DNA of 28,006 nucleotides. Origin: a virus. The translations under genes were made by a program, and so were the position numbers. Of the stretch, positions 960 to 21,672 are shown piece by piece. The DNA is taken from UHGV virus genome UHGV-0119633; one strand, given 5' to 3'. Numbering within the stretch: position 1 is the stretch's first letter; every line of letters begins with the position of its first letter. Below the pieces are notes generated by a model. The model saw nothing but the letters and a program-made list of their open reading frames with translations. It did no database searches and was not told the DNA's origin.

Positions 960-1457
960 TTAAATGATATCTTTATGTTCACCTTTAAACCATAAAGAAC
1001 CATCCTCGAAACCTTCAATCAGTACACAAGTTCCGACAATATCGGTTTCGTGCTTATTATGTTCCACAACCAAACGATTACCTACTGTTTTCCATGACGA
1101 TAAAGCTCGTTCGTATTTTACTTTTGTATTATACGCAGACACATATCTCTTTTCGTAACCGTCCAATCTCTGTTTTAATTTCTTTACCTCATCACCATCC
1201 GGTTTCTCTTTTTCAGTTTGCTCTTTCAATCTGTCAAGAGTTTCCGTGATATTGTAAGGTAATTCCTTCAATCTGTTCTTGGAAGTACTCAAGTTTTTTG
1301 CTGCTTGCTTATGTAAATAATTCTCAAGCTTATCGATCTTGTCGATAATGTTCTTTGCGGTATCAATCACGATCCAATTAGAACCAAGTTTTGTACCTAA
1401 ATAAATAATTTCGTTTTCTTCCTGTTTCTTTAAAAAGTTGATAAATGTTGTTTTCAT
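960..1457 (-). CDS. hypothetical protein (165 aa)
   Basis: ORF track; RBS AAAGGGG upstream; followed by strong terminator. Confidence 0.6.
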   Translation of the reverse strand: MKTTFINFLKKQEENEIIYLGTKLGSNWIVIDTAKNIIDKIDKLENYLHKQAAKNLSTSKNRLKELPYNITETLDRLKEQTEKEKPDGDEVKKLKQRLDGYEKRYVSAYNTKVKYERALSSWKTVGNRLVVEHNKHETDIVGTCVLIEGFEDGSLWFKGEHKDII

Positions 1458-1486
1458 AAATATACCCCTTTCTTTAAATAAACTAT

Positions 1487-1518
1487 TTTTCTATAAAGGG
1501 AGATGTTTATTTAGCGAG
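1487..1518 (-). promoter_or_regulatory. conserved intergenic motif, copy B
   Basis: Minus-strand CTCGCTAAATAAACATCTCCCTTTATAGAAAA; ~30 nt upstream of start of 960-1457. Confidence 0.3.
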
Positions 1519-1944
1519 TTAATCCATGTTCACTAATTCGTGAATTGAACATTTCAATGCTCTCGCCATTTTTATCAGATTACGAGAATTCGGAGTGGCT
1601 AGACCGTTTGTGTATTTACTTATCGTAACCTGAGTGACACCTATCTTTTCAGCTAATCGATCTTGTGTCATAGCTACGTTTCTCATTTTCCGATTTAGAT
1701 TACGAGCAAATATCTTTCTCCATTCTTCTTCTGAAATGTCAATTGAATCTTCGTTGCCTGGATCATGAATCAGATAGGCTTGTCTATTAAGAAAATCATA
1801 AGCATACTTTTTACCGCCTTTGATCTTTACCGTGATCTCTAATTGTGCACTAGGATACCAATCTAACATTTCTTCCGCTAGATTAGGATAATCCTGACAA
1901 AATGCTTCATATACGGGTTTCCAATATTTTTTACCGTCATTCAT
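1519..1944 (-). CDS. XRE-family helix-turn-helix DNA-binding protein
   Basis: C-terminal RNVAMTQDRLAEKIGVTQVTISKYTNG...LIKMARALKCSIHEL is a classic Cro/C1-type HTH; start moved to internal ATG (1942-1944, MNDGKK) which has GGAGGGA RBS at 6 nt; track ORF extends to 1959. Confidence 0.7.
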   Translation of the reverse strand: MNDGKKYWKPVYEAFCQDYPNLAEEMLDWYPSAQLEITVKIKGGKKYAYDFLNRQAYLIHDPGNEDSIDISEEEWRKIFARNLNRKMRNVAMTQDRLAEKIGVTQVTISKYTNGLATPNSRNLIKMARALKCSIHELVNMD

Positions 1945-2060
1945 CTTAAGTCCCTCCATTTCTTAAAGATTGAATTATGTGCAGACCGAAATTCATTTTT
2001 ACCGTTTTTAGGGCCAAAATGACCGAAAATAGCCAATTTAGCCCCATTTTTGACGAAAAG

Positions 2061-2112
2061 TGCCGAATTATTAGCAGACCAAAAATAATTATTAGCAGAC
2101 CAAAATTCGGCA
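2061..2112. repeat. operator-like element: tandem 21-bp direct repeats flanked by 9-bp inverted repeat
   Basis: AATTATTAGCAGACCAAAA at 2066-2084 and 2087-2105 (period 21) bracketed by TGCCGAATT / AATTCGGCA; related GCAGACCGAAA and TGACCGAAAA copies at 1982-2035. Confidence 0.5.
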
Positions 2113-2116
2113 TATC

Positions 2117-2401
2117 TTACACATAATCGTCCTCATCTATGTCGTCTTCATACTCAAATTCATCATTATAATCGTCACTACCAGATCCATATAACTCTTT
2201 TAAAGCTTCTTGACGTTTGTTAATACTATCGATAGATGCTTTATATGTACTGATTCTGATAAACTCCGACATAGACATTCCGCTAAGTCTAGCTGCCCTC
2301 TCTATAGACGAATACTCCTCGTCATTGCATTTAGAGAAAATAGGTTTTCTTCTCGCTCCAAACTTCAACGGCCTCCCACGTTTCTTTTTAACTTCTTCCA
2401 T
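2117..2401 (-). CDS. small basic/AT-hook (KKRGRP) protein with RHH-like core and acidic tail
   Basis: ORF track 94 aa; RBS GAGGAGGA; motif GMSMSEFIRIS resembles ribbon-helix-helix family; paralogous to 3643-3813 and 6290-6493. Confidence 0.55.
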   Translation of the reverse strand: MEEVKKKRGRPLKFGARRKPIFSKCNDEEYSSIERAARLSGMSMSEFIRISTYKASIDSINKRQEALKELYGSGSDDYNDEFEYEDDIDEDDYV

Positions 2402-2407
2402 AAAATA

Positions 2408-2569
2408 TCAATCCTCCTCGCGAGCACTAGACGAACCATAACGATCTAATTCAATATCTACACCCTGCAAATTATCATAATTATGTATGGTAAGATCTGT
2501 CGATACCGTACCACCAAGCAATAAATCACCGATATCCTCAATACTAAGTTTTACAATAATTCTACTCAT
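2408..2569 (-). CDS. hypothetical small protein (53 aa, MSRIIVKLSIEDIGDLLGG...)
   Basis: Hand-translated; ATG 2567-2569 preceded by AAGGAGGA; stop TGA lies inside RBS of next gene. Confidence 0.4.
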   Translation of the reverse strand: MSRIIVKLSIEDIGDLLLGGTVSTDLTIHNYDNLQGVDIELDRYGSSSAREED

Positions 2570-2584
2570 AAATATCAATCCTCC

Positions 2585-2959
2585 TTACCACTCATCAAAC
2601 TCATGATAATCTTCGTCCTTGCAGCCACCCTTAGCCCACAACAACACCTGTATCAGACGGTCAATATCATACTCTTCAAATATCAAGAATTGTTTGTAAC
2701 CAAGGTAGTCATTAGTATCGCCATCATAAATCTCAAATGTCGCCTTAACAGATTCCTCATCGAACACGCTATCCAGATTCCACGGTTCCAACGGCATAAC
2801 CCCATTAAAAACCCAATCGAAAATATAAAACATAGGATTTAATTCTCTACCATGATCGACCTTAATCGCTAATCTCTCTTCCAAAACACACGGAGTATAC
2901 GGAGCAAATATAGTACCAGCTGGCATACGATTAAATGTTTTAAAATCTACTATCTTCAT
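2585..2959 (-). CDS. hypothetical protein (124 aa)
   Basis: ORF track; RBS AAGGAGGAA upstream. Confidence 0.6.
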   Translation of the reverse strand: MKIVDFKTFNRMPAGTIFAPYTPCVLEERLAIKVDHGRELNPMFYIFDWVFNGVMPLEPWNLDSVFDEESVKATFEIYDGDTNDYLGYKQFLIFEEYDIDRLIQVLLWAKGGCKDEDYHEFDEW

Positions 2960-2962
2960 AAT

Positions 2963-3346
2963 TTATTCCTCCTTATCTTTTTCACACCACATTCCAACAA
3001 GATCACTATACACTTCTAGCATTTTTACATCTGGTTTATCGTGGGTTTTATTATATTCATCAAAATATTCATTGAATGCACAAATACACTTCCAAATATA
3101 CATTTGTTTAGAATCATTTGTTTCATCCATTTCAGGTCTTTTTGCTTCCTCCTTGACATTCACTTTAGCCCAAGCGAAATAATGCTCCATATGCTCTCCA
3201 GGACCAAAGCCAACACAACGCGTGCTAACTGATAACGTAACATCATCGGGTTTTACTTTGTAACCGTTTCGACAACAATAGTCTGCTATAATCTCACAGA
3301 CATCATCTTCTGATAAATTAATAGTAATGTTCTTATTAATATTCAT
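2963..3346 (-). CDS. hypothetical protein (127 aa)
   Basis: ORF track; RBS AAGGAGGA overlapping stop of upstream gene. Confidence 0.6.
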   Translation of the reverse strand: MNINKNITINLSEDDVCEIIADYCCRNGYKVKPDDVTLSVSTRCVGFGPGEHMEHYFAWAKVNVKEEAKRPEMDETNDSKQMYIWKCICAFNEYFDEYNKTHDKPDVKMLEVYSDLVGMWCEKDKEE

Positions 3347-3360
3347 AACTCTAATCCTCC

Positions 3361-3621
3361 TTATCTCACATCAACGTTGCATCCAAAATTAATCAGATAA
3401 TCGGTAGTACAACCCAACACATGAGACATTCTAGCGATAACATCTATTCTAGGGGTACGTTTACATCTCATATAATTAGACATAGCCGACTCAGATATAC
3501 CGATTAATTTAGCCAATTCTTTTTGATTAATGCCGCATAAGTCCATACGGTAATTAAGCTTTTCAACGAAGCGTTTTCGCCATTCAATTTCACTAATAGA
3601 TTTTATAGGAGTCATTTCCAT
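3361..3621 (-). CDS. XRE-family helix-turn-helix DNA-binding protein
   Basis: INQKELAKLIGISESAMSNYMRCKRTPRIDVIARMSHVLGCTTDYL = Cro/C1-type HTH; RBS AAGGAGGA. Confidence 0.7.
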   Translation of the reverse strand: MEMTPIKSISEIEWRKRFVEKLNYRMDLCGINQKELAKLIGISESAMSNYMRCKRTPRIDVIARMSHVLGCTTDYLINFGCNVDVR

Positions 3622-3642
3622 AAAAATATCAATCCTCCTTAC

Positions 3643-3813
3643 TTACTTCTCTTCTTGGTACATTCTCTCTAAAGCAGTTCTAAATACATCAGCAGCACTC
3701 ATACCTGTTGACTTACGAACCTTCTCTAAAATATCTAATTCTTTCCTATTAACACGAACTAGATATCTTGTATCTCTAGGATCTGCTATCGGTTTTCTAC
3801 CTCTCTTCGCCAT
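3643..3813 (-). CDS. small basic/AT-hook RHH-like protein (56 aa, MAKRGRKPIADPRDTRYLVRVNRKELDILEKVRKSTGMSAADVFRTALERMYQEEK)
   Basis: Hand-translated; below ORF-track size cutoff; RBS AAGGGAGG 8 nt upstream; clear paralog of 6290-6493 (RGRP..DPR..Y..R.N..E...LE...K.TGM..ADVFR.ALE..Y). Confidence 0.55.
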   Translation of the reverse strand: MAKRGRKPIADPRDTRYLVRVNRKELDILEKVRKSTGMSAADVFRTALERMYQEEK

Positions 3814-3910
3814 ACATATCGCCTCCCTTCTATGACAGATACCATTAATACGAAAAACAAAAGAAGAGCCTCAACTAAATATCAATCTAGTCAAAGCTCT
3901 CCCACATCAA

Positions 3911-3982
3911 TTAATCTTTAAGATAACCAACTTTATATAAGAATCTTCCTACAACTGCCCAAAACTTCTGTCTGAGTGTCAT
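3911..3982 (-). CDS. possible 23-aa peptide (MTLRQKFWAVVGRFLYKVGYLKD)
   Basis: Strong RBS AAAGGAGGGA 6 nt upstream of ATG, ~30 nt downstream of promoter-like motif D; very short. Confidence 0.2.
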   Translation of the reverse strand: MTLRQKFWAVVGRFLYKVGYLKD

Positions 3983-4007
3983 ATAGATCCCTCCTTTCTA
4001 TTTGGTT

Positions 4008-4040
4008 TCTTTTCATAATAGGCGTTGTTAATATCACGAA
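4008..4040 (-). promoter_or_regulatory. conserved intergenic motif, copy D
   Basis: Minus-strand TTCGTGATATTAACAACGCCTATTATGAAAAG. Confidence 0.3.
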
Positions 4041-4063
4041 AGAAAAAGAGAGAAGAAGTATAT

Positions 4064-4205
4064 CTCAGCTACACGTTTCTCTGCATCCATTTAAAGACAC
4101 ATTCACTGGTCAGTTCCAGTCCCACTAATATACTTTGATGCTACACGTTTCTCCATACATAAGTATGTTCACTGGTCAGTTCCAGTCCCACATCAACTTT
4201 TATTC
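4064..4205. repeat. tandem ~70-bp direct repeat (2 copies) with internal hairpin
   Basis: Both copies share CTACACGTTTCTC and TTCACTGGTCAGTTCCAGTCCCAC (ACTGG/CCAGT stem); located between promoter-like motifs E and D. Confidence 0.55.
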
Positions 4206-4238
4206 TTCTCTCATAATATAAAATGTATTTTTCGCGAA
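4206..4238 (-). promoter_or_regulatory. conserved intergenic motif, copy E
   Basis: Minus-strand TTCGCGAAAAATACATTTTATATTATGAGAGA; directly after terminator 4237-4264. Confidence 0.35.
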
Positions 4239-4264
4239 TAAAAAGAAGAGGCTGTAAAAGCCCC
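4237..4264 (-). terminator. rho-independent terminator (short stem)
   Basis: GGGGC-UUUUACA-GCCUC then UUCUUUUUAUU on minus RNA; after stop of 4274-4657. Confidence 0.4.
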
Positions 4265-4273
4265 TTACTTGTT

Positions 4274-4657
4274 TTACTTAATTTTAATTGAGTCGTATTC
4301 CTCCTTAAATTTATTAAGCTTTTCCGTAAGTTCTTTTAACTCCTCTTCATATCTTTGTTTTACTATTAATGACACTTCGGAATTGTGTTTGTCACATCCT
4401 TCGATTTTAGAGACTCGATAAGCTATCTTTCTGTTCAGTGTTCCTATAGCTTCTTCAAGAGCACCTTCTTTTACCACATCTCTCACGAACTCTATAGTTT
4501 CAGTGTTATTCTTTATCTGTATATGATTCTTACATATAAAGAACGTTACCAATCCTATAGAAACACATGAGACACCGGCAATTATTTTGCCATTGTTGTC
4601 CATAACCACTTCTTTGAAAGACCTCTTTCCTTTCTCTTTAACATCGTGCTTCTTCAT
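4274..4657 (-). CDS. membrane-anchored coiled-coil protein (127 aa)
   Basis: ORF track; RBS AAGGAGG; hydrophobic segment IIAGVSCVSIGLVTFFI; followed by terminator. Confidence 0.6.
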   Translation of the reverse strand: MKKHDVKEKGKRSFKEVVMDNNGKIIAGVSCVSIGLVTFFICKNHIQIKNNTETIEFVRDVVKEGALEEAIGTLNRKIAYRVSKIEGCDKHNSEVSLIVKQRYEEELKELTEKLNKFKEEYDSIKIK

Positions 4658-4684
4658 ATCAAATACCTCCTTTAGAAATTAATA

Positions 4685-4717
4685 GTTTTTCATAAAGGGG
4701 TATGTAATTTACGCGAT
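4685..4717 (-). promoter_or_regulatory. conserved intergenic motif, copy F
   Basis: Minus-strand ATCGCGTAAATTACATACCCCTTTATGAAAAA; ~35 nt upstream of start of 4274-4657. Confidence 0.35.
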
Positions 4718-4734
4718 CACAAAAACCTCAAATA

Positions 4735-4995
4735 TCAATCCTCACTCTCTTTTTCTTCAAACATATCTGGTCTAGCGTATAAAGCTGCTTCAACCTCTTC
4801 TTCAGTCATTAGTGGTTTAATAGAACATCTGTCAAAATCCTGGTCATTAAATCTTACAACCATACCTTTTATCCCTTCATTCTGAGCGTGGATTGCTACA
4901 AGATCCATACAGGTTCTGAAAGTCCTCTTATCCACCGACAATCCAGCTTTTACTTCTACGTTAACTTCTCCGATAATATTCTTTTTACTTTCCAT
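4735..4995 (-). CDS. hypothetical protein (86 aa)
   Basis: ORF track; RBS AAGGAGGATTGAATT-ATG. Confidence 0.6.
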   Translation of the reverse strand: MESKKNIIGEVNVEVKAGLSVDKRTFRTCMDLVAIHAQNEGIKGMVVRFNDQDFDRCSIKPLMTEEEVEAALYARPDMFEEKESED

Positions 4996-4998
4996 AAT

Positions 4999-5289
4999 TC
5001 AATCCTCCTTCGTTTTATCTGCCATATCTCGAATAAGCACAATCTCATTGATATCATCCTCAATACGACGATAAATGCTATCAAATTTTTCCTGATAACG
5101 ATACATGTCTTGCAAATAGAAACTATGTATACGACTGTCTCGCTTACCGAAATTGACGATAACAGTTATGTATAAACCATCAAATTGGATATTAATTGGT
5201 ATATCATTCGCGCACCCAAGATCTCGTAACATCATTAATGCGGTAGTTACGTTAGTTATCATGTTGGTTTCATCGTTATAAAACTTCAT
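4999..5289 (-). CDS. hypothetical protein (96 aa)
   Basis: ORF track; stereotyped junction GGAGGATTGATATTTT-ATG. Confidence 0.6.
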   Translation of the reverse strand: MKFYNDETNMITNVTTALMMLRDLGCANDIPINIQFDGLYITVIVNFGKRDSRIHSFYLQDMYRYQEKFDSIYRRIEDDINEIVLIRDMADKTKED

Positions 5290-5295
5290 AAAATA

Positions 5296-5538
5296 TCAAT
5301 CCTCCAATGGCTTACCAGAACAATCCACCTCGATCATCTCTGGATTAGTATGTAACGTTTTCCCAAACTCCATTAATTCGGTAAGTAATTTGTTAAACTT
5401 AATAATAAATTCTTTAAGTGCCTCCTCACGAGTTTCGCCATACCCTTCGATAGTATAAATAGTATAGTCATCAAAATCTGCGCTTACGGTATGAGACTGC
5501 CACCTACCTTTTCCATCGTCATTATGTGTTAACTTCAT
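5296..5538 (-). CDS. hypothetical protein (80 aa)
   Basis: Start set to ATG 5536-5538 (MKLTHND) which carries GGAGGATTGAGTTT spacing; track ORF extends to 5556. Confidence 0.55.
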   Translation of the reverse strand: MKLTHNDDGKGRWQSHTVSADFDDYTIYTIEGYGETREEALKEFIIKFNKLLTELMEFGKTLHTNPEMIEVDCSGKPLED

Positions 5539-6837: not shown

Positions 6838-7173
6838 TCAAATATCGCCTTCTTTTCTATGCTGACTCTTCTCACTGTCAAACCCATCAGGATACCTCTC
6901 CATAAGTTTGCATAAGTTAGTCTCCATAATAGTCTGAAGATCATAACCGATAGCTTTAGCACTGATTGCCAAATACCAAGCAACATCTCCAAGCTCTTTT
7001 GCGATATGCTTTCTATCGAGTTCATGACCCTGAAACAAATGCTTCTTGAGAATATCGATACACTCTCCGGCCTCTCCATTAAGACCCATAAGACCATTTT
7101 GAAGCTGCTCCATGTCTGTTAACTCCTGGTTTGCTGATCTCCATGCTCCATCCTGATATGCGTTAATTTCCAT
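6838..7173 (-). CDS. mazG: MazG-like nucleoside triphosphate pyrophosphohydrolase
   Basis: NGEAGECIDILKKHLF...ELGDVAWYLAISAKAIGYDLQTIMETNLCKLMERYP matches the dimeric MazG-like fold signature; RBS AAAGGAGAAAG; overlapping 6792-7097 frame rejected. Confidence 0.75.
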   Translation of the reverse strand: MEINAYQDGAWRSANQELTDMEQLQNGLMGLNGEAGECIDILKKHLFQGHELDRKHIAKELGDVAWYLAISAKAIGYDLQTIMETNLCKLMERYPDGFDSEKSQHRKEGDI

Positions 7174-7218
7174 TTCTTTCTTTCTCCTTTTCTTATGCTA
7201 TAATTATTTCGGATAAAT

Positions 7219-7260
7219 AGACAAAACCCCTAGAAACGCCGTATAAAGCGTCACAGGGGC
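7219..7260 (-). terminator. rho-independent terminator after nrdG
   Basis: GCCCCU...AGGGG stem with inner GACGC/GCGU pairing, followed by UUUUGU on minus RNA. Confidence 0.5.
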
Positions 7261-7272
7261 ATTCTTAGAGGG

Positions 7273-7764
7273 TTAATCGCACCACAACACAATCTGTCCA
7301 AGTTCTCTAGTTCTCTTTACATCTATAACTCTTTGATTTGAGCTTCCTCTCCATTTCAACTGTACATCTCTGAGTTTCTCGACATACGGTCCGTCTACCA
7401 AAACATCAATGTACTCCATAACCGGTAGATCTTTAACCGCTTCATATGTATATCCGGTGTAAAGCCAGATCGTTTTGTTTGGGAAAGATGCTTTTACTAT
7501 TTCGCATAGTGTCAAAATATCCCATCGGTTTCCTTCAAACAACGGATCTCCACCCGATAAAGTCAAACCGGAAATATAATCTTCATCGAGTAGATCTTCG
7601 AGTTCCTCCCAAGCATTTCCATCAAACAACAATCCATCATCAGGGTTCCAAGTAACAGGATTCTGACATCCAGGGCATTCATGATCGCAGCCGGCAACCC
7701 ATAGGACTACACGAAGACCGTCTCCGTTTTTCATATCGTCTTTCGTAATATCATGGTATCTCAT
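7273..7764 (-). CDS. nrdG: anaerobic ribonucleotide reductase activating protein (radical SAM)
   Basis: GCDHECPGC (CxxxCxxC) radical-SAM cluster plus SLSGGDP, IWLYTGY, VLVDGPYV, WRGSSNQ motifs typical of NrdG; RBS GGAGGTGA. Confidence 0.9.
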   Translation of the reverse strand: MRYHDITKDDMKNGDGLRVVLWVAGCDHECPGCQNPVTWNPDDGLLFDGNAWEELEDLLDEDYISGLTLSGGDPLFEGNRWDILTLCEIVKASFPNKTIWLYTGYTYEAVKDLPVMEYIDVLVDGPYVEKLRDVQLKWRGSSNQRVIDVKRTRELGQIVLWCD

Positions 7765-7799
7765 TTACTATCACCTCCATCATTCAGTTTCACATTTGT

Positions 7800-8039
7800 T
7801 TATATATTCCATTCGTCAAGATCATCCTCGTTATTATCAATAGCTTTCTTTGCCTCAGCAGTTGATGCCTTGATATGACGATAAATAACTTTGCTAATAA
7901 CCGCAACGACTAAAACTGGCCATATAGCTATGAGAATCAATGATTTAGGCTCTTCTGGATCTTTCTTAGCGACCTCATCAATAAGAGAACCCATACAAAA
8001 ATATAACAATGCAGCACAAAACCATTCAAAACCTGTCAT
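7800..8039 (-). CDS. small 2-TM membrane protein (79 aa)
   Basis: ORF track; RBS AAAGGAGA; two hydrophobic segments. Confidence 0.55.
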   Translation of the reverse strand: MTGFEWFCAALLYFCMGSLIDEVAKKDPEEPKSLILIAIWPVLVVAVISKVIYRHIKASTAEAKKAIDNNEDDLDEWNI

Positions 8040-8052
8040 AATATCTCCTTTC

Positions 8053-8376
8053 TTAATCTACACATTTAACTTCGATGCCTGTCTCTTCTTCAAGTTCGCG
8101 GAAATAATCTTCCATTGTTTTACTTCCGTCTTCGATAGCGCCCATAAGCTCGTCAACGTACTCTAATGTCTTAGCGATACGCTTACTTCCGAATTTATGA
8201 ATCCTATGTTCAGCCAGTGCGAAACAAGACATCAGGGCCTCCGTACTAAATGTGGAAGCCCTATCTGAAATATCTTTCTTGATCTTAGCAAGTTCATACT
8301 TGTCGATCACGACCTGATTTTTCTTGTTCTCAATCCTTTCTAATCGTTCGCGCATTCTCCTTTCAGCACGTCCCAT
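8053..8376 (-). CDS. hypothetical protein (107 aa)
   Basis: ORF track; RBS AAAGGAGGA. Confidence 0.6.
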   Translation of the reverse strand: MGRAERRMRERLERIENKKNQVVIDKYELAKIKKDISDRASTFSTEALMSCFALAEHRIHKFGSKRIAKTLEYVDELMGAIEDGSKTMEDYFRELEEETGIEVKCVD

Positions 8377-8380
8377 ACTT

Positions 8381-8650
8381 TTAATCCTCCTTTAAAAACG
8401 TATCTTCAAACTCCAAATCAGGCATAAAATTAGCGCATATACTATCGTAGCGATAATCATAAAACTCGATCTCACTAACGAATATGAATATGCGCCCATC
8501 TTTTAAATAAATTATTCGTTCGGATACGTGTAACTCAGCAATGTCTTGTGCAATGTCACTCTTAGTCATAAACCGTTCAAATATATTTTGTGCCATCCGG
8601 TTGGTTCTTGATATTATTATGTATAAATTAGTATTTGGTTTTTCTGACAT
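8381..8650 (-). CDS. hypothetical protein (89 aa)
   Basis: ORF track; weak RBS AAAGGA. Confidence 0.5.
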   Translation of the reverse strand: MSEKPNTNLYIIISRTNRMAQNIFERFMTKSDIAQDIAELHVSERIIYLKDGRIFIFVSEIEFYDYRYDSICANFMPDLEFEDTFLKED

Positions 8651-8813
8651 TATTTGATCCTTTCAATGCGTAGGGAGTACGATCAAACCATTTTCTAGCT
8701 TTCGAATAGTTTTCCTTTTCTCGCCCTAAACTTTCACATCTAGAATATTCAGCGTGTTTATTGAAACCTATCACTTTCTTAGAATGGCTTTTGTCCACAT
8801 CCACATATCTCAT
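8628..8813 (-). CDS. small basic protein (61 aa)
   Basis: ORF track; RBS AAGGAGAAAAAG; ATG overlaps upstream stop (ATGA). Confidence 0.5.
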   Translation of the reverse strand: MRYVDVDKSHSKKVIGFNKHAEYSRCESLGREKENYSKARKWFDRTPYALKGSNNVRKTKY

Positions 8814-8968
8814 TTCTTTTTCTCCTTGTAATATACAGGTTTATGAGAGTTAAGATTTGTCGGTTCATCGAGACAATCAAAACACGGATCTTCCCATTCT
8901 TCTTTATCCTCATGTCGGCACGATTTACAATACTCAAAATAAACCTCTTTTTCATCATTTGGCCGCAT
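8810..8968 (-). CDS. small Cys-rich zinc-ribbon-like protein (52 aa, MRPNDEKEVYFEYCKSCRHEDKEEWEDPCFDCLDEP...)
   Basis: Hand-translated; RBS GAAAGGAGGAAACCGAG-ATG; CxxC...CxxC. Confidence 0.45.
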   Translation of the reverse strand: MRPNDEKEVYFEYCKSCRHEDKEEWEDPCFDCLDEPTNLNSHKPVYYKEKKK

Positions 8969-9000
8969 CTCGGTTTCCTCCTTTCTAAAAAAGAGAAGCC

Positions 9001-9162
9001 CTAATTGGACTCCTTTTGAGTTACTTCATTCTTTTCGGTGCTATTCTTTTCTTCGTTTTTGTTACGTTTCCCGCTCGCCATATTCAACGCAAATATAACA
9101 GTGGAAACAATACCTGCAATGTAGCTCAGTACGATAATCGCTAAAATCTCTGTGAATGCCAT
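9001..9162 (-). CDS. small membrane peptide (53 aa, MAFTEILAIIVLSYIAGIVSTVIFALNMASGKRNKNEEK...)
   Basis: Hand-translated; RBS GGAGGATTAAATT-ATG; one TM segment plus charged tail. Confidence 0.45.
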   Translation of the reverse strand: MAFTEILAIIVLSYIAGIVSTVIFALNMASGKRNKNEEKNSTEKNEVTQKESN

Positions 9163-9165
9163 AAT

Positions 9166-9846
9166 TTAATCCTCCTTTTTAGATCCGGTGATAAGTTCTG
9201 AATATGGAAGAGTTTCGATCCATCTACAGAATTCTCTCCACTCATCGAGCTTGTGGTTTTTTCTCTGGTGATACATGGCTGCCAGGACTTCATAATTGAG
9301 CATAACAGTACGTTTCTGGTTATAGCTGCTCGGAAGAAGCTGAATCATCTGCCACCAACAGCCTTTGTCTTTAGATTTTAAATAAGATTCACGGCACCAG
9401 TTTAACTGCTCTATTGTGGTATTAAGAACGGATAATGATGCTTTGCATAAATGTTCACAACTAAAATCCTCCAGCGTAAATTCCTTCGCATGAATCTTGT
9501 GCATAGTTGAGCAAGAGTTAGCAACAGTACCGATTTTATAAGTATCGAACTCCTTCCACCAATACAAAGGCGCTGTAATATCCACATACACAGTAATCAT
9601 CCGCATAAATTTACGATGCTCTGTACCAGCGTTCCGAAGTCTTTTCATAAGGTCGAGGTCGTTTGGCCCGATTATAAAACGGCATGTATTACCGCACCAA
9701 TCCGGTTTGAAACCACACGATTTACAAAGACCAGTATCGCATCCGTTACTACTATCACTCTTCTCCCAACTATTCATCGGATTCCGCATACCTCTAATGG
9801 CAGCTTCCCATCCCATAACTTCTACATTCTCAATTTTAATACTCAT
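9166..9846 (-). CDS. ThyX-like (flavin-dependent thymidylate synthase fold) protein, divergent, with Cys-rich insert
   Basis: By-eye alignment to ThyX: VEVMGWEAAIRGMR / TEHRKFMRMITVYVDITAPLYWW / TVMLNYEVLAAMYHQR resemble ThyX core blocks, but canonical RHR motif appears replaced (DTYK) and a CDTGLCKSCG...CGNTC insert is present; RBS AGGAGGA. Confidence 0.4.
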   Translation of the reverse strand: MSIKIENVEVMGWEAAIRGMRNPMNSWEKSDSSNGCDTGLCKSCGFKPDWCGNTCRFIIGPNDLDLMKRLRNAGTEHRKFMRMITVYVDITAPLYWWKEFDTYKIGTVANSCSTMHKIHAKEFTLEDFSCEHLCKASLSVLNTTIEQLNWCRESYLKSKDKGCWWQMIQLLPSSYNQKRTVMLNYEVLAAMYHQRKNHKLDEWREFCRWIETLPYSELITGSKKED

Positions 9847-9858
9847 AATTTAATCCTC

Positions 9859-10602
9859 CTATTCAAGCCAATTGTTATCTAAATAATAAAATCCAATTAC
9901 ACAAGCGATAATTAACACAATCCATACTACCCAAAAGAATATAAGCCACCCGTTTCCGTATTTTAATGTCTCGTACGTTTCATCAATGCTCATATTGTTA
10001 TAGAAATTAGTGTTATCAGGTATGGTTCCGTCTTTTAACCTGGCAAATATAGTTCCTTTGAATTTGGTTGGTGTACCATAATACTTATATCGAACGTCAC
10101 TAGATTCCTTAAGGGTATCGATATAATCCGGTGATGGAATATTGATTTTACTAGACGGAAAAGTAACACCACAAAATATCAATTCTTTGCAGGTCTTATC
10201 CTCGCTTCCAACCCTATCCCATGTCCAGTAGTACTCTGTTCTTGTATGTGTGGTTCTATTTTTGCCAGAACCGGTAGTATAAGTGACAATTCGAGTATGC
10301 ATTGTATATCGCTCTTTCACTTTTTCGACATACATATATTTTCCGTCTATTTCCGGATAAGTAACCGTGTCAACAGCTTTTAGATTTCCATTCACAAAAG
10401 CGTTTCCGACATTGGTCCTCATACCATACTCGAATATATCGGACTCTTTGATTTTTACTGCTTTGTTGTAGATCTCATTCTTATCCATTTGGTGCTCCGA
10501 AATCTTACTAGAAATCAGAACACCAATAAGTAATAGAATGGCTATAATAGAAATACTGGCTAACACTTCCCTTTTAGTTATTTCAATATCATAGTCTCCC
10601 AT
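9859..10602 (-). CDS. membrane protein with N- and C-terminal TM helices (247 aa), LemA-associated
   Basis: ORF track; RBS AAGGAGTAA; hydrophobic VLASISIIAILLLIGVLISS and GWLIFFWVVWIVLIIACVIGFYYL. Confidence 0.6.
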   Translation of the reverse strand: MGDYDIEITKREVLASISIIAILLLIGVLISSKISEHQMDKNEIYNKAVKIKESDIFEYGMRTNVGNAFVNGNLKAVDTVTYPEIDGKYMYVEKVKERYTMHTRIVTYTTGSGKNRTTHTRTEYYWTWDRVGSEDKTCKELIFCGVTFPSSKINIPSPDYIDTLKESSDVRYKYYGTPTKFKGTIFARLKDGTIPDNTNFYNNMSIDETYETLKYGNGWLIFFWVVWIVLIIACVIGFYYLDNNWLE

Positions 10603-10607
10603 ATTAT

Positions 10608-11162
10608 TTACTCCTTGAATAAATCCTGCGGTGCGTCAACTGGAGCATCATAATCCAAATATGTATAATCTTGTGTCTCGTATCCTAATAAACTTAAAAA
10701 TGTTCTTGTCGGGAATTTACGTACATAGCGATTGTATTCTTTTATCTGCTTATTATAGTTACTACGATATTCCGCGATAAGATTCTCTGTAATAGATAAT
10801 TCATTCATTAGTTCTTTATAGTTTGAATCTGACTTCAACTCAGGATATGCTTCAGATACTGCGGTAATAGCTGTCGTCACATTCTCAATGTCTCCTGTTT
10901 TACCTCGGCCTTCCACAATTGACTTAAGAGTCTCTGCTTCGTGTTTATCGTACTGCTTCACACAATCTGCCAGATTCATAACGAGATCTACTCTTCGTTT
11001 TTCCTGAACCTTGATATCAGAATCAGCACTGTTTACTTGTTCTTCTAGAGCAATTGCTTTGTTCTGAGAACTCTGGACTACAAATACACCTAATAAAATA
11101 ACTGCCAGAATACCAGCAGCTACGATTAACATTACCTTCCAATTTTTATTATTTCCTTTCAT
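10608..11162 (-). CDS. lemA: LemA-family protein
   Basis: N-terminal TM then VQEKRRVDLVMNLADCVKQYDKHEAETL...VSEAYPELKSDSNYKELMNELSITENLIAEYRSNYNKQIKEYNRYVRKFP matches LemA family; start moved to ATG 11160-11162 (MKGNNKNW) with AAGGAGA RBS. Confidence 0.75.
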   Translation of the reverse strand: MKGNNKNWKVMLIVAAGILAVILLGVFVVQSSQNKAIALEEQVNSADSDIKVQEKRRVDLVMNLADCVKQYDKHEAETLKSIVEGRGKTGDIENVTTAITAVSEAYPELKSDSNYKELMNELSITENLIAEYRSNYNKQIKEYNRYVRKFPTRTFLSLLGYETQDYTYLDYDAPVDAPQDLFKE

Positions 11163-11338
11163 TTTTTGATCTCCTTTTCTAAATATTTTTTGATTTCTTC
11201 GCAACGTTCTGCATGTTTACAAGTAATGTCTGTATTAGTGCAATATCTACCCATATCGCATTCCAATTCAGCTTTACTAACATACGGATCGAAGTCAGGA
11301 CAATTATGACAATAATCCTCCACGAATAATTTGATCAT
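11159..11338 (-). CDS. small Cys-rich protein (59 aa, MIKLFVEDYCHNCPDF...CTNTDITCKHAERC)
   Basis: Hand-translated; RBS AAAGGAGGAA 6 nt upstream; stop overlaps lemA start (ATGA). Confidence 0.45.
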   Translation of the reverse strand: MIKLFVEDYCHNCPDFDPYVSKAELECDMGRYCTNTDITCKHAERCEEIKKYLEKEIKK

Positions 11339-18354: not shown

Positions 18355-18987
18355 TCAATATGGAATCTTCCACTTGCCTCCTACTTTCACAGCTCCTGGA
18401 TGCAACCCCTGTCTACACTGTTTCTGAATTGTAGCTTTTGTACAACCTAATTTTTCAGCGAGTTCTTCTGCGGTAAGCATGATTACTTTTCTTTCTTCTG
18501 TATTGTCCTTGTTAACCGCGATCGAAAGTTTTGGTATAGTTAAATTATTAAGTGCTTGTTTTAATTCATCCAAAGCCGATAATTCTTCCTCCTCTTTTTC
18601 TTCCGGTAACCATTTCTTAAATACTTCATAATAGTTACCCTTATTTCCAAGAGCCTTCTTAGCAATTGCCATAGCCAGACCTTTCTCCGGATCGTAAATA
18701 TCATCTTCTCCTGATTTTACGATAGTCTTAGTTCCATCTTCCCACAGAACTACAGTTACCGGATCATTGAAATATACTTTCTTAATTGTAATAGTGTTTT
18801 CTCTCCTCTCTGAACTTTCAACTCCAAACATTTTATTCAGAGCATGTTTAGCTAACATTTTCATTTCTTTATCAATATCCATAGCAAGTACCGGATTTAT
18901 TAAAGTATTAGACTCGTAATGACTCCATCCGACACACCCCCTACATGCATAGGTGTTTTTATTTTTACATCCATAACAACTCAACAT
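18355..18987 (-). CDS. DNA-binding protein: N-terminal Cys cluster plus C-terminal excisionase/MerR-like HTH (HTH_17-type)
   Basis: C-terminus IMLTAEELAEKLGCTKATIQKQCRQGLHPGAVKVGGKWKIP matches Xis-type HTH; N-terminus CYGC...CRGC. Confidence 0.6.
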   Translation of the reverse strand: MLSCYGCKNKNTYACRGCVGWSHYESNTLINPVLAMDIDKEMKMLAKHALNKMFGVESSERRENTITIKKVYFNDPVTVVLWEDGTKTIVKSGEDDIYDPEKGLAMAIAKKALGNKGNYYEVFKKWLPEEKEEEELSALDELKQALNNLTIPKLSIAVNKDNTEERKVIMLTAEELAEKLGCTKATIQKQCRQGLHPGAVKVGGKWKIPY

Positions 18988-19125
18988 AATTTTATTTTCC
19001 TTTCTTAAATATCAATCTTTTACATAATGAAGACCCTCCCAAACTACGAGAGAGCCAAGTTACTCAAACGGATTATCTACCTTTGGCATTGTAAATCCCA
19101 CTACGCATCACCTCACTTTGTTTTT

Positions 19126-19308
19126 TTATTCGTAAGCAGACATTTTTACAAAAGATTCGTCATGTTTGTTAAACTGTATGCTAGCATGACAATATGGTCC
19201 GTAAACTTCGATATATACATGTTTCGGATCAATACATTCATAATAGCTATTTTCGTATTTGACACCCCATTTATTTAACCATTCTTTCCATTGTTCTAGA
19301 TCTGTCAT
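19126..19308 (-). CDS. hypothetical small protein (60 aa)
   Basis: ORF track; modest RBS. Confidence 0.45.
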   Translation of the reverse strand: MTDLEQWKEWLNKWGVKYENSYYECIDPKHVYIEVYGPYCHASIQFNKHDESFVKMSAYE

Positions 19309-19343
19309 AATATTATTCTCACTTTCTAAATATCAACTCTAAC

Positions 19344-19877
19344 TTAAAACTCAAACGGAATTTGTTCTACATCCCCGCCCTGAACAGTAACGCTCTGCAT
19401 TAGCTGTCCAGTCTCTTCGTCGTAAAATAAATCATCCAAGAAATGATCAATGTCATCTTGAACGTCCTGGTCTGCCATTCTCATAACTTCATAGCCTTCA
19501 AGACCGATATGACGACGGAGTTTCTTCAAAACAGTAGCAGTCCATCTTCTGAATTTACGAGCTTCAAGTTTCTTACTAGAATATAAAGCTTCATATATAC
19601 CGATCTCATTTACCGCCAACATCCAACGGTATCTATTTTCCCCTTTTGATCTATCCACCTTTGAAAGGTGATCAGATGATTCGTTATACCTTAAAGGTAT
19701 ATCAGATACGTCTACTCTAACTCTCATCATCATATCCGGATCTAATCTCTGAGATACTTTGAATGTTTTAAGTTCCAAAGCATTACAAATATCTTTCAGG
19801 ATAGCCCACCATTCACCATCCTGCTCGATAAATCTAATATCATATCCCATCCAATTCTCTGTTCTCATTTCGCTCAT
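19344..19877 (-). CDS. Bro-N-like domain protein (anti-repressor-type N-terminal domain)
   Basis: MGYDIRFIEQDGEWWAILKDICNALEL resembles Bro-N/KilA-N pattern; start moved to ATG 19875-19877 with AAAGGAGAA RBS. Confidence 0.5.
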   Translation of the reverse strand: MSEMRTENWMGYDIRFIEQDGEWWAILKDICNALELKTFKVSQRLDPDMMMRVRVDVSDIPLRYNESSDHLSKVDRSKGENRYRWMLAVNEIGIYEALYSSKKLEARKFRRWTATVLKKLRRHIGLEGYEVMRMADQDVQDDIDHFLDDLFYDEETGQLMQSVTVQGGDVEQIPFEF

Positions 19878-19891
19878 ATTATTCTCCTTTC

Positions 19892-20029
19892 CTACCAAAA
19901 CTTCACGTTACGAATCTTTCCACAGATCTTACACCGACATCTAAATATGCCTACTTTAAAACCGCAGTAGTCGTAATAAATATCATGCGGTTTGTCTTCG
20001 AGTTTTTCCCATTCGTGAATATGAAACAT
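19892..20029 (-). CDS. small Cys-rich protein (45 aa, MFHIHEWEKLEDKPHDIYYDYCGFKVGIFRCRCKICGK...)
   Basis: Hand-translated; RBS AAAGGAGAGG 6 nt upstream. Confidence 0.4.
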   Translation of the reverse strand: MFHIHEWEKLEDKPHDIYYDYCGFKVGIFRCRCKICGKIRNVKFW

Positions 20030-20074
20030 ACTATACCTCTCCTTTCTTATCAAAAATCCCACACTGATAAAATT

Positions 20075-20103
20075 TTAGTTAAAATAAAAAAAAAGAGGCC
20101 AGA
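20075..20103 (-). terminator. U9 tract after vWA gene (weak hairpin)
   Basis: Run of nine T on minus strand immediately after stop; stem not convincing. Confidence 0.25.
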
Positions 20104-21672
20104 CTATTTAGCCAAGCCCCTTTCGTTTAGTGCATCCTCAACTGCGGAATATCGATCTGAGTTAAGTTGCTCTAATAAGCACTCTAGCGGATCGGTGTTA
20201 TTACTAAGCACCATATTGGTAATAATCGGACTAAATCCACTTACTAAAGCAACTCCTAGATCGTTCTCTTTTACTGGGATGGTTCCTGTTCTGCTACAAA
20301 TGTTCCAGAATATCAATCTAGGAAGTTTATAGCCGTACTGAGAGTAACGATCTGATATCGTATTAAACAGTGTTTTACTCGGTCTGATATTGCTCCATCT
20401 TGAACCTCCTTCGCAACTAGCACAGCTATCAAATTCCATATCTGATAAGATAAGTATGTTTTTAGGAATGTCGTTCTGTGACATGTTATTGTTGATTGCT
20501 GTTTTGAGAATAAGTTCAAATACAGCTTCGATGTTTGTGTTAGCCACCTCGTTGTATCTCCTGGCAATTTCGATCTTTTCTCTCAAAGATTCTCCGTTAC
20601 TAAGATCTACTAAACGAGGATTCATGCTGAATGTAATATATTTGTCTCTGAATTCACCAGAACTTCTTTCAGAAAAATATATTGCAAGAGCATTGGCTAC
20701 CTCTAAAGCTGTTACACTTGTTCCGCCGACAGGACAGTCCATACTACCCGATCCGTCCGCAACGCAAATTGTGTTACCGTCTCCGTTTACATAATCGGGA
20801 AGTGCTTTCCACAATTCTTCAAGTGTAATGTCATCTTTACCTTTGAGTTTATTCCCGTACCAAAATTCACCCCGATCAAAGTATTTATGTACAATATCAT
20901 GCGGGAATAGTACACCAGCATTGATTTTCGTCTCGCCTTTCTGCAAACTCGCTAAGTAACTACTTCTCCTTTCCTCATCGTTCTTCATAAACGCATTACC
21001 ATATATAATATTGGCTCTTGATGGAACCGCAGAATAATCAATCTTTGACCATTCTTTCTTACACATACTAACTTCCACAACTTTTAAATATGCACGAAGA
21101 TCCGAAAGCATTTTACGATAGGATTTCTCGTTAATAAATAACTTCTGAATCATAAGACGTGCTAGTCGTTTTGTCTCTTTAGACGAAGTGTTTGCAGACG
21201 GCATCCATTTAGCTAATAAAGAAATAGGCTCTCCTAGAGATCTCTTCCTTATATCACTTGTCAACTGTGTAGATACAATTGATACAACGTAGTCTGAAAC
21301 GTCAGTGTCTAATAAACACCATAAATCATCCCATCTACCGTATTCCGGAACCAACGGAATGATTGCCTTTGATATATCGGCATGTTTTTCGGATAGATAC
21401 TTAAGACAATATCTGAATAATCTTCTTTCTCCGAGACCTTCTCGTACATCTCTGGCATAGAACAACCACTTGATAGCAAGCTGTTTGTTTTCGTAGAATG
21501 TCTTTACAAACTTGTCTACGATTTCTCCCTCGTCCATATTTCGCATGGATGTTACTGAAAAGTTGATGTCAAGAAGTTCTTTACCAGTAGTACGGTAACC
21601 AACTGCTCCATTTTCAGTAAGGCTTGTGTTGAATTCATCATTGATTGTTTCTTTCAGATTGTTCATAAACAT
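20104..21672 (-). CDS. vWA-domain protein with MIDAS motif and TROVE/Ro60-like N-terminal region (DUF2828-like)
   Basis: 522 aa; DGSGSM (DxSxS MIDAS) followed by vWA-like layout; N-terminal GYRTTGKELLD and LAIKWLFYARDVREGLGERR resemble TROVE module; RBS AAAGGAGAAAAACT. Confidence 0.6.
   Translation of the reverse strand: MFMNNLKETINDEFNTSLTENGAVGYRTTGKELLDINFSVTSMRNMDEGEIVDKFVKTFYENKQLAIKWLFYARDVREGLGERRLFRYCLKYLSEKHADISKAIIPLVPEYGRWDDLWCLLDTDVSDYVVSIVSTQLTSDIRKRSLGEPISLLAKWMPSANTSSKETKRLARLMIQKLFINEKSYRKMLSDLRAYLKVVEVSMCKKEWSKIDYSAVPSRANIIYGNAFMKNDEERRSSYLASLQKGETKINAGVLFPHDIVHKYFDRGEFWYGNKLKGKDDITLEELWKALPDYVNGDGNTICVADGSGSMDCPVGGTSVTALEVANALAIYFSERSSGEFRDKYITFSMNPRLVDLSNGESLREKIEIARRYNEVANTNIEAVFELILKTAINNNMSQNDIPKNILILSDMEFDSCASCEGGSRWSNIRPSKTLFNTISDRYSQYGYKLPRLIFWNICSRTGTIPVKENDLGVALVSGFSPIITNMVLSNNTDPLECLLEQLNSDRYSAVEDALNERGLAK

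Follow-up and report, generated by a model that had tools for sequence, protein, structure and literature searches.

The window analyzed here, the 28,006 nucleotides of the UHGV virus genome UHGV-0119633, contains a gene (positions 9166 to 9846, minus strand) encoding a 226-residue protein that shares the fold of the thymidylate synthase ThyX; this protein and its family are designated THYXL below. The window is an entire human-gut metagenome contig (ENA ERZ1755778 NODE_478, identical sequence) and is therefore a genome fragment. Its G+C content is about 35%, and the minus strand carries almost all of the genes. The gene content, which includes Cro/CI-type regulators, a Bro-N antirepressor, a SNF2-type helicase, and many small open reading frames (ORFs), corresponds to the early and replication region of a phage. 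A JGI/IMG-VR contig of 96,655 bp encodes an identical 226-residue protein and harbors the same neighboring genes. A megablast comparison of this region with isolated phages gave no match.

In the order of transcription, the THYXL gene is followed by six small ORFs (9162 to 7800, minus strand; 53, 52, 61, 89, 107, and 79 residues), for which PHROG matches were weak or of unknown function only. The next gene, nrdG (7273 to 7764, minus strand), encodes the 163-residue radical-SAM activase of the anaerobic ribonucleotide reductase and is separated by a 99-bp spacer (7174 to 7272) from mazG (6838 to 7173, minus strand), which encodes a MazG-like all-alpha nucleoside triphosphate pyrophosphohydrolase of 111 residues. 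The three genes named in an initial annotation of the window were all retrieved as ORFs of the minus strand. That annotation had placed mazG between nrdG and the THYXL gene; mazG is in fact located downstream from nrdG, and the interval is filled by the six small ORFs.

THYXL did not match any Pfam or NCBIfam model, even at E ≤ 1, and searches of the PDB with the single sequence and with a profile of the family returned one chance-level match only. The protein is a member of PHROG 6721, which it matches over its full length (E = 6.9e-86; residues 2 to 221 aligned with positions 7 to 216 of the 218-position profile). The PHROG 6721 entry is silent on function, on any relationship to ThyX, and on cellular members. 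An AlphaFold2 model of THYXL based on 43 homologues was confident (pLDDT 84, pTM 0.80), and a Foldseek search of the PDB with this model retrieved ThyX structures only (probability 1.0). The Pfam Thy1 model was weakly matched by 7 of 73 diverse members of the family, with a best score of 23.8 bits for a PF02511 cutoff of 24.8, and the best TIGR02170 score among the relatives was 15.9 bits for a cutoff of 87.9. The match in fold and the sub-threshold Thy1 signal indicate that the relationship to ThyX, which the initial annotation had proposed by eye, is real. The THYXL family is just outside the reach of current ThyX models.

Residues were mapped by hhalign comparison of the family with ThyX from Thermotoga maritima, alone or together with nine viral ThyX sequences; the alignment was used for this purpose only, beside the structural match. 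The E-values were weak (0.04 to 0.27, and 0.04 to 0.06 for the mappings used), yet the alignment was colinear over the whole protein. The ThyX residues retained in THYXL (THYXL numbering in parentheses) were His53 (H77), Ala68-Pro69 (A92-P93), Asn85 (N110), Ser88 (S113), Pro151 (P172), Asn163 (N184), Arg174 (R195), His178 (H198), and Glu182 (E202). The residues lost were R78-H79-R80, Glu86 (replaced by S111), Arg90 (M115), Tyr91 (H116), and Arg165 (E186), and ThyX R147 had no clear equivalent. The place of the flavin-binding motif R78-H79-R80 is occupied by K98-E-F-D-T-Y-K104 (9535 to 9555, minus strand), RHR being aligned with K98-E99-F100 or with T102-Y103-K104 depending on the alignment register. 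The string RHR was present, at any position, in 1 of 270 family sequences. Thus, a relationship to ThyX was recovered without a canonical RHR-containing alignment, and the absence of the motif reported in the initial annotation stands.

The active-site loop of ThyX, E86-L-S88-G-R90-Y91, corresponds to S111-C-S113-T-M115-H116 (9499 to 9516, minus strand), and the pattern S-x-S-x-M-H was conserved in 257 of the 270 sequences and in all six distant phage members that were aligned. Model confidence was low at residues 107 to 112. R174 and H178 of ThyX correspond, with a weak hhalign E-value, to the ends of R195-K-N-H198 (9253 to 9264, minus strand), and R-x-x-H-[KR] was found in 258 of the 270 sequences. 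In the distant phage members (29 to 36% identical to the window protein), which originate from phages of Desulfovibrio, Clostridioides, Fusobacterium, Clostridium, and Enterocloster, the invariant core consisted of S-x-S-x-M-H, P172, N184, and R-x-x-H, including both R195 and H198. C112 was considered as a ThyA-like catalytic cysteine and rejected, since distant members have Q, T, or E at this position.

The literature on ThyX provides roles against which these losses and retentions can be read. Arg174 activates dUMP/uracil (PMC8316439), Ser88, Arg90, and Tyr91 assist the transfer from the flavin carbinolamine, Arg78 stabilizes FADH-, and His53, which Asn85 and Tyr91 keep in place, forms a stack with folate or flavin (PMC8316439, PMC11940539). 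As judged from the alignment, the uracil- and folate-facing residues are preserved in THYXL and the flavin-facing ones are gone.

Variation of the RHR motif was also observed in viral homologues that are closer to ThyX. The ThyX homologues encoded by a set of IMG/VR viral contigs (L014 to L025) contained W-Y-K-H-V-V-G instead of W-F-R-H-R-I-A and a 12-residue insertion ahead of N-E-I-S-G-R-Y. RHR is therefore not universal among viral homologues 39 to 40% identical to T. maritima ThyX.

The multi-cysteine insertion noted in the initial annotation exists in the window protein, where it spans residues 33 to 57 (9676 to 9750, minus strand; pLDDT 55 to 74) and comprises five cysteines (C36, C41, C44, C51, and C55). 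It probably forms a small metal-binding knuckle. At least three cysteines were present at this position in 107 of 199 parsable relatives and none in 44 of 199, and all chromosomal and all distant phage copies of THYXL lacked the insertion. Since it is absent from the chromosomal and distant members, the insertion is not a feature of the family; it is a clade-specific decoration rather than the key to function. Because of this lack of conservation, the idea that the insertion has an Fe-S or zinc role throughout the family was also rejected.

THYXL constitutes a sister family to ThyX, which is very large and has no name. With clustering at 50% identity, an exhaustive profile search retrieved 4,864 clusters for E ≤ 1e-3 and 1,506 for E ≤ 1e-30. 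A word-indexed search returned at least 8,000 matches, and the best 120, which were those listed, were 63 to 100% identical to the window protein. Despite the size of the family, members displayed 50 to 88% identity with the window protein. At least 588 THYXL loci were found in species-representative genomes, mostly of Lachnospiraceae, Oscillospiraceae, and Ruminococcus, with cultured strains included, and the isolated phages that carry a THYXL gene infect anaerobes only (Clostridium, Clostridioides, Enterocloster, Fusobacterium, and Desulfovibrio). Database labels of the members are 'hypothetical' or 'uncharacterized', and full-text literature searches retrieved no description of an RHR-less ThyX-like family or of a third type of thymidylate synthase.

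Six members (P0134, P0206, P0207, P0218, P0252, and P0259) contained in-frame NUMOD4, HNH_3, and HTH homing-endonuclease modules. The insertion point was a variable surface loop after residue ~133 (about 9445 to 9450 in the window), and both halves of the host protein were retained. No intein (Hint) domain was detected in these members. The C-terminal extensions found in THYXL had no Pfam match, and the inserted domains, HNH, NUMOD4, and HTH only, provided no functional clue. Insertions of homing endonucleases are typical of conserved DNA-precursor and enzyme genes.

To characterize the genomic context of the family, neighboring genes were clustered in 80 THYXL loci from genomes, with up to 10 kb of flanking sequence on each side. 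Marker clusters assigned 37 loci to phage replication modules and 10 to chromosomes, 34 being unclassified. The chromosomal loci had no phage genes nearby. The chromosomal homologues, which belong to Clostridia, were 57 to 63% identical to the window protein and displayed the same invariant motifs. The order dnaN-recF-remB-gyrB-THYXL was found in five loci, the gyrB-THYXL arrangement being that of Oscillospiraceae/Monoglobus. A gene encoding dihydrofolate reductase (DHFR; PF00186, E = 1e-42 to 1e-46) was located near THYXL in 8 of the 80 loci, in Lachnospiraceae chromosomes. In five of these (L084, L100, L102, L107, and L109), it was immediately downstream from the THYXL gene, with a 4-bp overlap or within 12 bp; a single gene intervened in L081 and L101, and the distance was 3 kb in L094. 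An independent check was made starting from the DHFR of L107. All six sampled homologues of this enzyme (62 to 77% identical) were encoded next to a THYXL gene, the products of which comprised 207 to 209 residues, were 57 to 60% identical to the window protein, and contained both motifs. The outer flanks of these THYXL-DHFR pairs differed (CLC channel, CbiC, M50 peptidase, and AddA). One of the sampled DHFRs belonged to an organism named Lacrimispora indolis by NCBI and was encoded by a 6.38-Mb contig.

In three Lacrimispora-type chromosomes (L199:4251-6529, L203:3097-5386, and L204:3252-5492), the THYXL-DHFR pair was followed by genes with DHODB_Fe-S_bind and Fer4_20/Pyr_redox_2 domains. Their products resemble NADPH-generating oxidoreductases of the NfnAB type and might supply DHFR with NADPH.

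The phage copies were found among genes of deoxynucleotide supply and replication. NrdD, NrdG, and MazG recurred near THYXL in the Clostridia siphovirus relatives. In ProddE, an unrelated T7-like podovirus of Desulfovibrio, THYXL was followed, in this order, by an exonuclease, a hypothetical gene, a MazG-like protein, a kinase, NrdD, and NrdG. A deoxynucleoside monophosphate kinase was encoded near THYXL in phage PMBT24 and a dUTPase in a temperate prophage, and the THYXL genes of phiCTP1, phiCD211, and Fnu1 were located within replication modules. Searches by tblastn detected neither ThyA nor canonical ThyX in 1.42 Mb of loci, including the 80 genome loci with their flanks, nor in 57.8 of the 59.2 kb of phiCTP1, which encodes NrdD.

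Together, these observations lead us to propose that the THYXL gene of the window most likely encodes a thymidylate synthase of a ThyX-derived family and is a DNA-precursor gene that the phage carries for its own use, a reading that we favor with moderate confidence. The location of the chromosomal copies beside the DHFR gene or after gyrB suggests thymidylate supply with an altered cofactor chemistry. In the proposed mechanism, the ThyX scaffold is kept, and R195, S113, H77, and N110 would position and activate the uracil and hold the folate-stacking histidine. Since the uracil- and folate-facing residues are retained, THYXL would still transfer the methylene group of CH2-tetrahydrofolate to C5 of dUMP. 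The reducing step probably differs from that of ThyX, because THYXL has lost Arg90/Tyr91 as well as RHR, the motif responsible for FAD binding and for stabilization of FADH-. The tight linkage of the cellular copies to DHFR suggests that folate itself could be the reductant, as in ThyA, in which case THYXL would produce dTMP and dihydrofolate and DHFR would recycle the latter. In the phage, the THYXL gene is part of an early nucleotide-supply and replication block together with nrdG and mazG. That THYXL has dispensed with a tightly bound flavin and oxidizes folate as ThyA does is a tentative proposal, which we consider possible rather than probable.

Several points weigh against this assignment. 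Arg90 and Tyr91, which are important in T. maritima ThyX, are both replaced in THYXL, and the Y91A substitution slows the dUMP-triggered step of the T. maritima enzyme more than 100-fold (PMC8316439). Binding of dUMP by THYXL is not assured, because the equivalents of R147 and R165 are lost. Several conserved basic residues of THYXL (R78, K79, R82, K98, and K104) could still bind a flavin nucleotide. The adjacency to DHFR fits dihydrofolate production but would also fit a general co-regulation of folate genes, and the phage THYXL loci hold no DHFR gene. Finally, the hhalign E-values of 0.04 to 0.06 are weak, and the residue equivalences around loop 107 to 112 are provisional because this loop is poorly modeled.

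The initial annotation had proposed that the ThyX fold was neofunctionalized for nucleotide or DNA modification. In such a scheme, THYXL would produce a non-canonical pyrimidine nucleotide (hydroxymethylated or otherwise substituted at C5) for incorporation into phage DNA, and MazG would clear the canonical deoxynucleoside triphosphate. Loss of the flavin motif and of Arg90/Tyr91 with retention of the uracil-activating arginine is consistent with this proposal, as is the fact that two phage lineages unrelated to each other both have pyrophosphohydrolases of the MazG type near THYXL, and there is a precedent, since phages encode thymidylate synthase homologues of the ThyA fold that make 5-hydroxymethyl or 5-hydroxy pyrimidines (bioRxiv 10.1101/2025.06.16.659550). 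However, the close orthologues described above are ordinary, single chromosomal genes of Clostridia located beside folA or gyrB and containing the same motifs, which is hard to reconcile with a role in modification of phage DNA. Moreover, no gene for a glycosyltransferase, a DNA kinase, or another hypermodification enzyme accompanied THYXL in the phage loci, and MazG is common in phages anyway. Modification is therefore not the best reading of THYXL; we regard it as improbable, and a thymidylate synthase as more likely than a DNA-hypermodification enzyme.

THYXL might also be a catalytically dead or non-enzymatic derivative of the ThyX fold, which might bind nucleotides or folate, act as a regulator or an anti-defense sponge, or enter the ThyX tetramers of the host as a poison subunit. 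The absence of several residues critical for ThyX and the presence of counter-defense genes (Tad3, NAD salvage) in the region of the window and in its relatives would be in agreement with such a role. Yet many polar residues, including those of the equivalent of the active-site loop, are very strongly conserved across thousands of clusters, and neither the housekeeping surroundings of the chromosomal copies nor the operon with DHFR would be expected of an anti-defense or poison protein. The homing-endonuclease insertions, which typically target conserved enzyme genes, also point to an enzyme, and we give this explanation little credence. The last alternative places THYXL in one-carbon or pyrimidine metabolism with a reaction other than that on dUMP (on UMP or an RNA uridine, by analogy with the ThyX paralogue PolB, or a DHFR-coupled reaction involving folate only). 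It is unlikely given that the phage neighbors are deoxynucleotide-supply genes (NrdD/G, dUTPase, deoxynucleoside monophosphate kinase), that linkage to DHFR is the hallmark of thymidylate synthase operons, and that no antibiotic-biosynthesis context was seen.

Identification of NrdG as clear-cut was confirmed. The protein scored 179.9 bits with TIGR02491, an equivalog-level model with a cutoff of 126.1, matched PF13353 (E = 8e-44) and phrog_626, was 50.7% identical to NrdG of phage T4, and contained the radical-SAM [4Fe-4S] motif C26-x3-C30-x2-C33 (7666 to 7689, minus strand), as read from the translation. The MazG-like protein matched phrog_229 (E = 5e-42) and scored 34.3 bits with PF03819, above the cutoff of 22 bits. 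Sequence searches of the PDB with MazG and NrdG retrieved no solved relatives at the thresholds used.

As previously noted, nrdD is not present in the 28-kb window: the longest ORF encodes 522 residues, and tblastn with the NrdD of a relative gave no match. The closest syntenic relatives (L042, L050, L053, and L055) displayed the order LemA, two-transmembrane-segment protein, THYXL, small ORFs, NrdG, NrdD, and MazG, so that the slot of nrdD corresponds to the nrdG-mazG spacer of the window. NrdD of these relatives is a bona fide class III reductase of 725 residues (PF13597, E = 1e-181). In comparison with T4-type NrdD/NrdG and phage MazG, the window shares NrdG, at the equivalog level, and MazG, but has no NrdD between them. 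Two other relatives, L048 and L052, also harbored nrdG without nrdD within 10 kb. A pattern-based scan for NrdD in IMG/VR did not return the near-identical 96.6-kb contig, a result that is no proof of absence. MT835485.1 (L011/L012), an unverified 70.6-kb 'Bacteriophage sp.' scaffold of human fecal origin, encodes an NrdG 73% identical to that of the window and a distant THYXL (29% identical to the window protein), and no NrdD was detected in this scaffold by motif search or tblastn. The nrdG-mazG junction of the window was only 67 to 72% identical to the DNA of the relatives, too diverged for deletion breakpoints to be located. The most fitting view of the window locus is that nrdD was recently lost from it or moved elsewhere. 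In the absence of this gene at the locus, NrdG may be a remnant or may act on a reductase encoded elsewhere, by the host or at a distant position of the phage genome.

Additional features were observed at or near the genes for the reductase. In L053 (13229-15317), NrdD aligned as two overlapping pieces (residues 1 to 597 and 623 to 725), which suggests that this nrdD copy may be frameshifted or decaying, in a phage group that also contains nrdG-only genomes. The far end of the MT835485.1 scaffold looks bacterial and may correspond to a prophage junction or to a chimeric scaffold. The nrdG-mazG spacer of the window contains an inverted repeat, CCCCT...AGGGG followed by TTTT (7222 to 7259, minus strand), with the look of a terminator; a consensus terminator scan did not report it.

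Other genes surrounding THYXL were also of note. A LemA-family membrane protein and a 247-residue protein (phrog_3886) with transmembrane segments at its N- and C-terminus are encoded directly upstream from THYXL (9859 to 10602 and 10608 to 11204, both on the minus strand), and this pair was kept in seven related loci. Between THYXL and nrdG, a cysteine-rich ORF of 52 residues (8810 to 8968, minus strand; phrog_19852, E = 3e-15) displays the pattern C-x2-C ... C-x2-C and probably encodes a small zinc-ribbon protein. Farther away, a 522-residue protein with DUF2828 and DUF7788 domains (20104 to 21672, minus strand) matches phrog_850, annotated 'RNA-binding protein'; gp112 of Fusobacterium phage Fnu1, encoded near its THYXL gene, bears the same annotation, the likeness being one of annotation only. 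Tad3, an inhibitor of type I Thoeris, was represented by a domain of a 339-residue protein found in L073 (1834-2853) and, as cluster c9, in L041, L042, L050, L053, and L055; this protein is commonly encoded 1 to 2 kb upstream from THYXL in the syntenic relatives and is absent from the window. L007, a related phage contig that shares the last gene of the window, contains a run of NAD salvage and reconstitution genes (1263-5356) encoding an isochorismatase/nicotinamidase, a phosphoribosyltransferase, a NAMPT/NAPRTase, a Macro protein, and an NAD synthase, in addition to a T4-type RNA ligase with an AAA_33 kinase (18807-20381). These NAD-salvage and RNA ligase/kinase genes are probably involved in counter-defense.

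RHR-less THYXL proteins are abundant in gut Clostridia and their phages, invisible to Pfam and NCBIfam models, and wired to DHFR in the manner of ThyA. If THYXL is a thymidylate synthase, genomes and phages in which it is the sole such gene will have been annotated as lacking one, since current models miss it. The family would also provide an exception to the DHFR independence of 'ThyX-type' synthesis, with a bearing on the effects of trimethoprim and other antifolates on gut commensals, and a natural experiment on the replacement of the flavin relay of ThyX. Cultured hosts (Lacrimispora indolis, Ruminococcus albus KH2T6) and isolated phages (phiCTP1, PMBT24, ProddE, Fnu1, and phiCD211) are available. 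Taken as a whole, the observations could define a third mechanistic class of thymidylate synthase, in which a ThyX scaffold devoid of RHR-bound flavin takes both the carbon and the reducing power from methylene-tetrahydrofolate, releases dihydrofolate, and hence depends on DHFR. Many gut Lachnospiraceae and Oscillospiraceae, the cultured L. indolis among them, would have such an enzyme as their housekeeping thymidylate synthase, and phages of anaerobes would have captured it on repeated occasions. We put this combined proposal forward as a conjecture, about which we remain doubtful.

THYXL can finally be compared to the enzymes already described. PolB of Streptomyces, the product of a thyX paralogue, is still a flavoenzyme with the ThyX motifs. 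It methylates both UMP and dUMP at C5 (4p5a; PMC5954106) and, unlike THYXL, resides in an antibiotic biosynthesis cluster. Two families of thymidylate synthases, ThyA and ThyX, are recognized (PMC6514825). The fold of THYXL is that of ThyX/Thy1 (PF02511, TIGR02170; TM0449 of T. maritima, 3ah5 of Helicobacter pylori). Humans lack the flavin chemistry of ThyX, and this enzyme is for that reason being pursued as a target for antibiotics. In comparison to ThyX, THYXL lacks RHR, contains Met and His in place of Arg90 and Tyr91, has lost the equivalents of R147 and R165, and scores below the Pfam and TIGRFAM cutoffs, and on these grounds it would be placed within the ThyX superfamily with neither the motif nor the model score of ThyX itself. 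In addition, the cellular copies of THYXL are linked in operons to DHFR, which canonical ThyX does not need because its chemistry yields tetrahydrofolate. ThyA, in contrast, produces dihydrofolate, which is recycled by DHFR (PMC5954106). The fold of THYXL is unrelated to that of ThyA, and no ThyA-like protein was found in the 1.42 Mb of loci searched, but the neighborhood follows the logic of ThyA and FolA, as found in thyA-folA operons and in td/frd of phage T4, namely a small dUMP-related enzyme gene adjoining the gene for DHFR.

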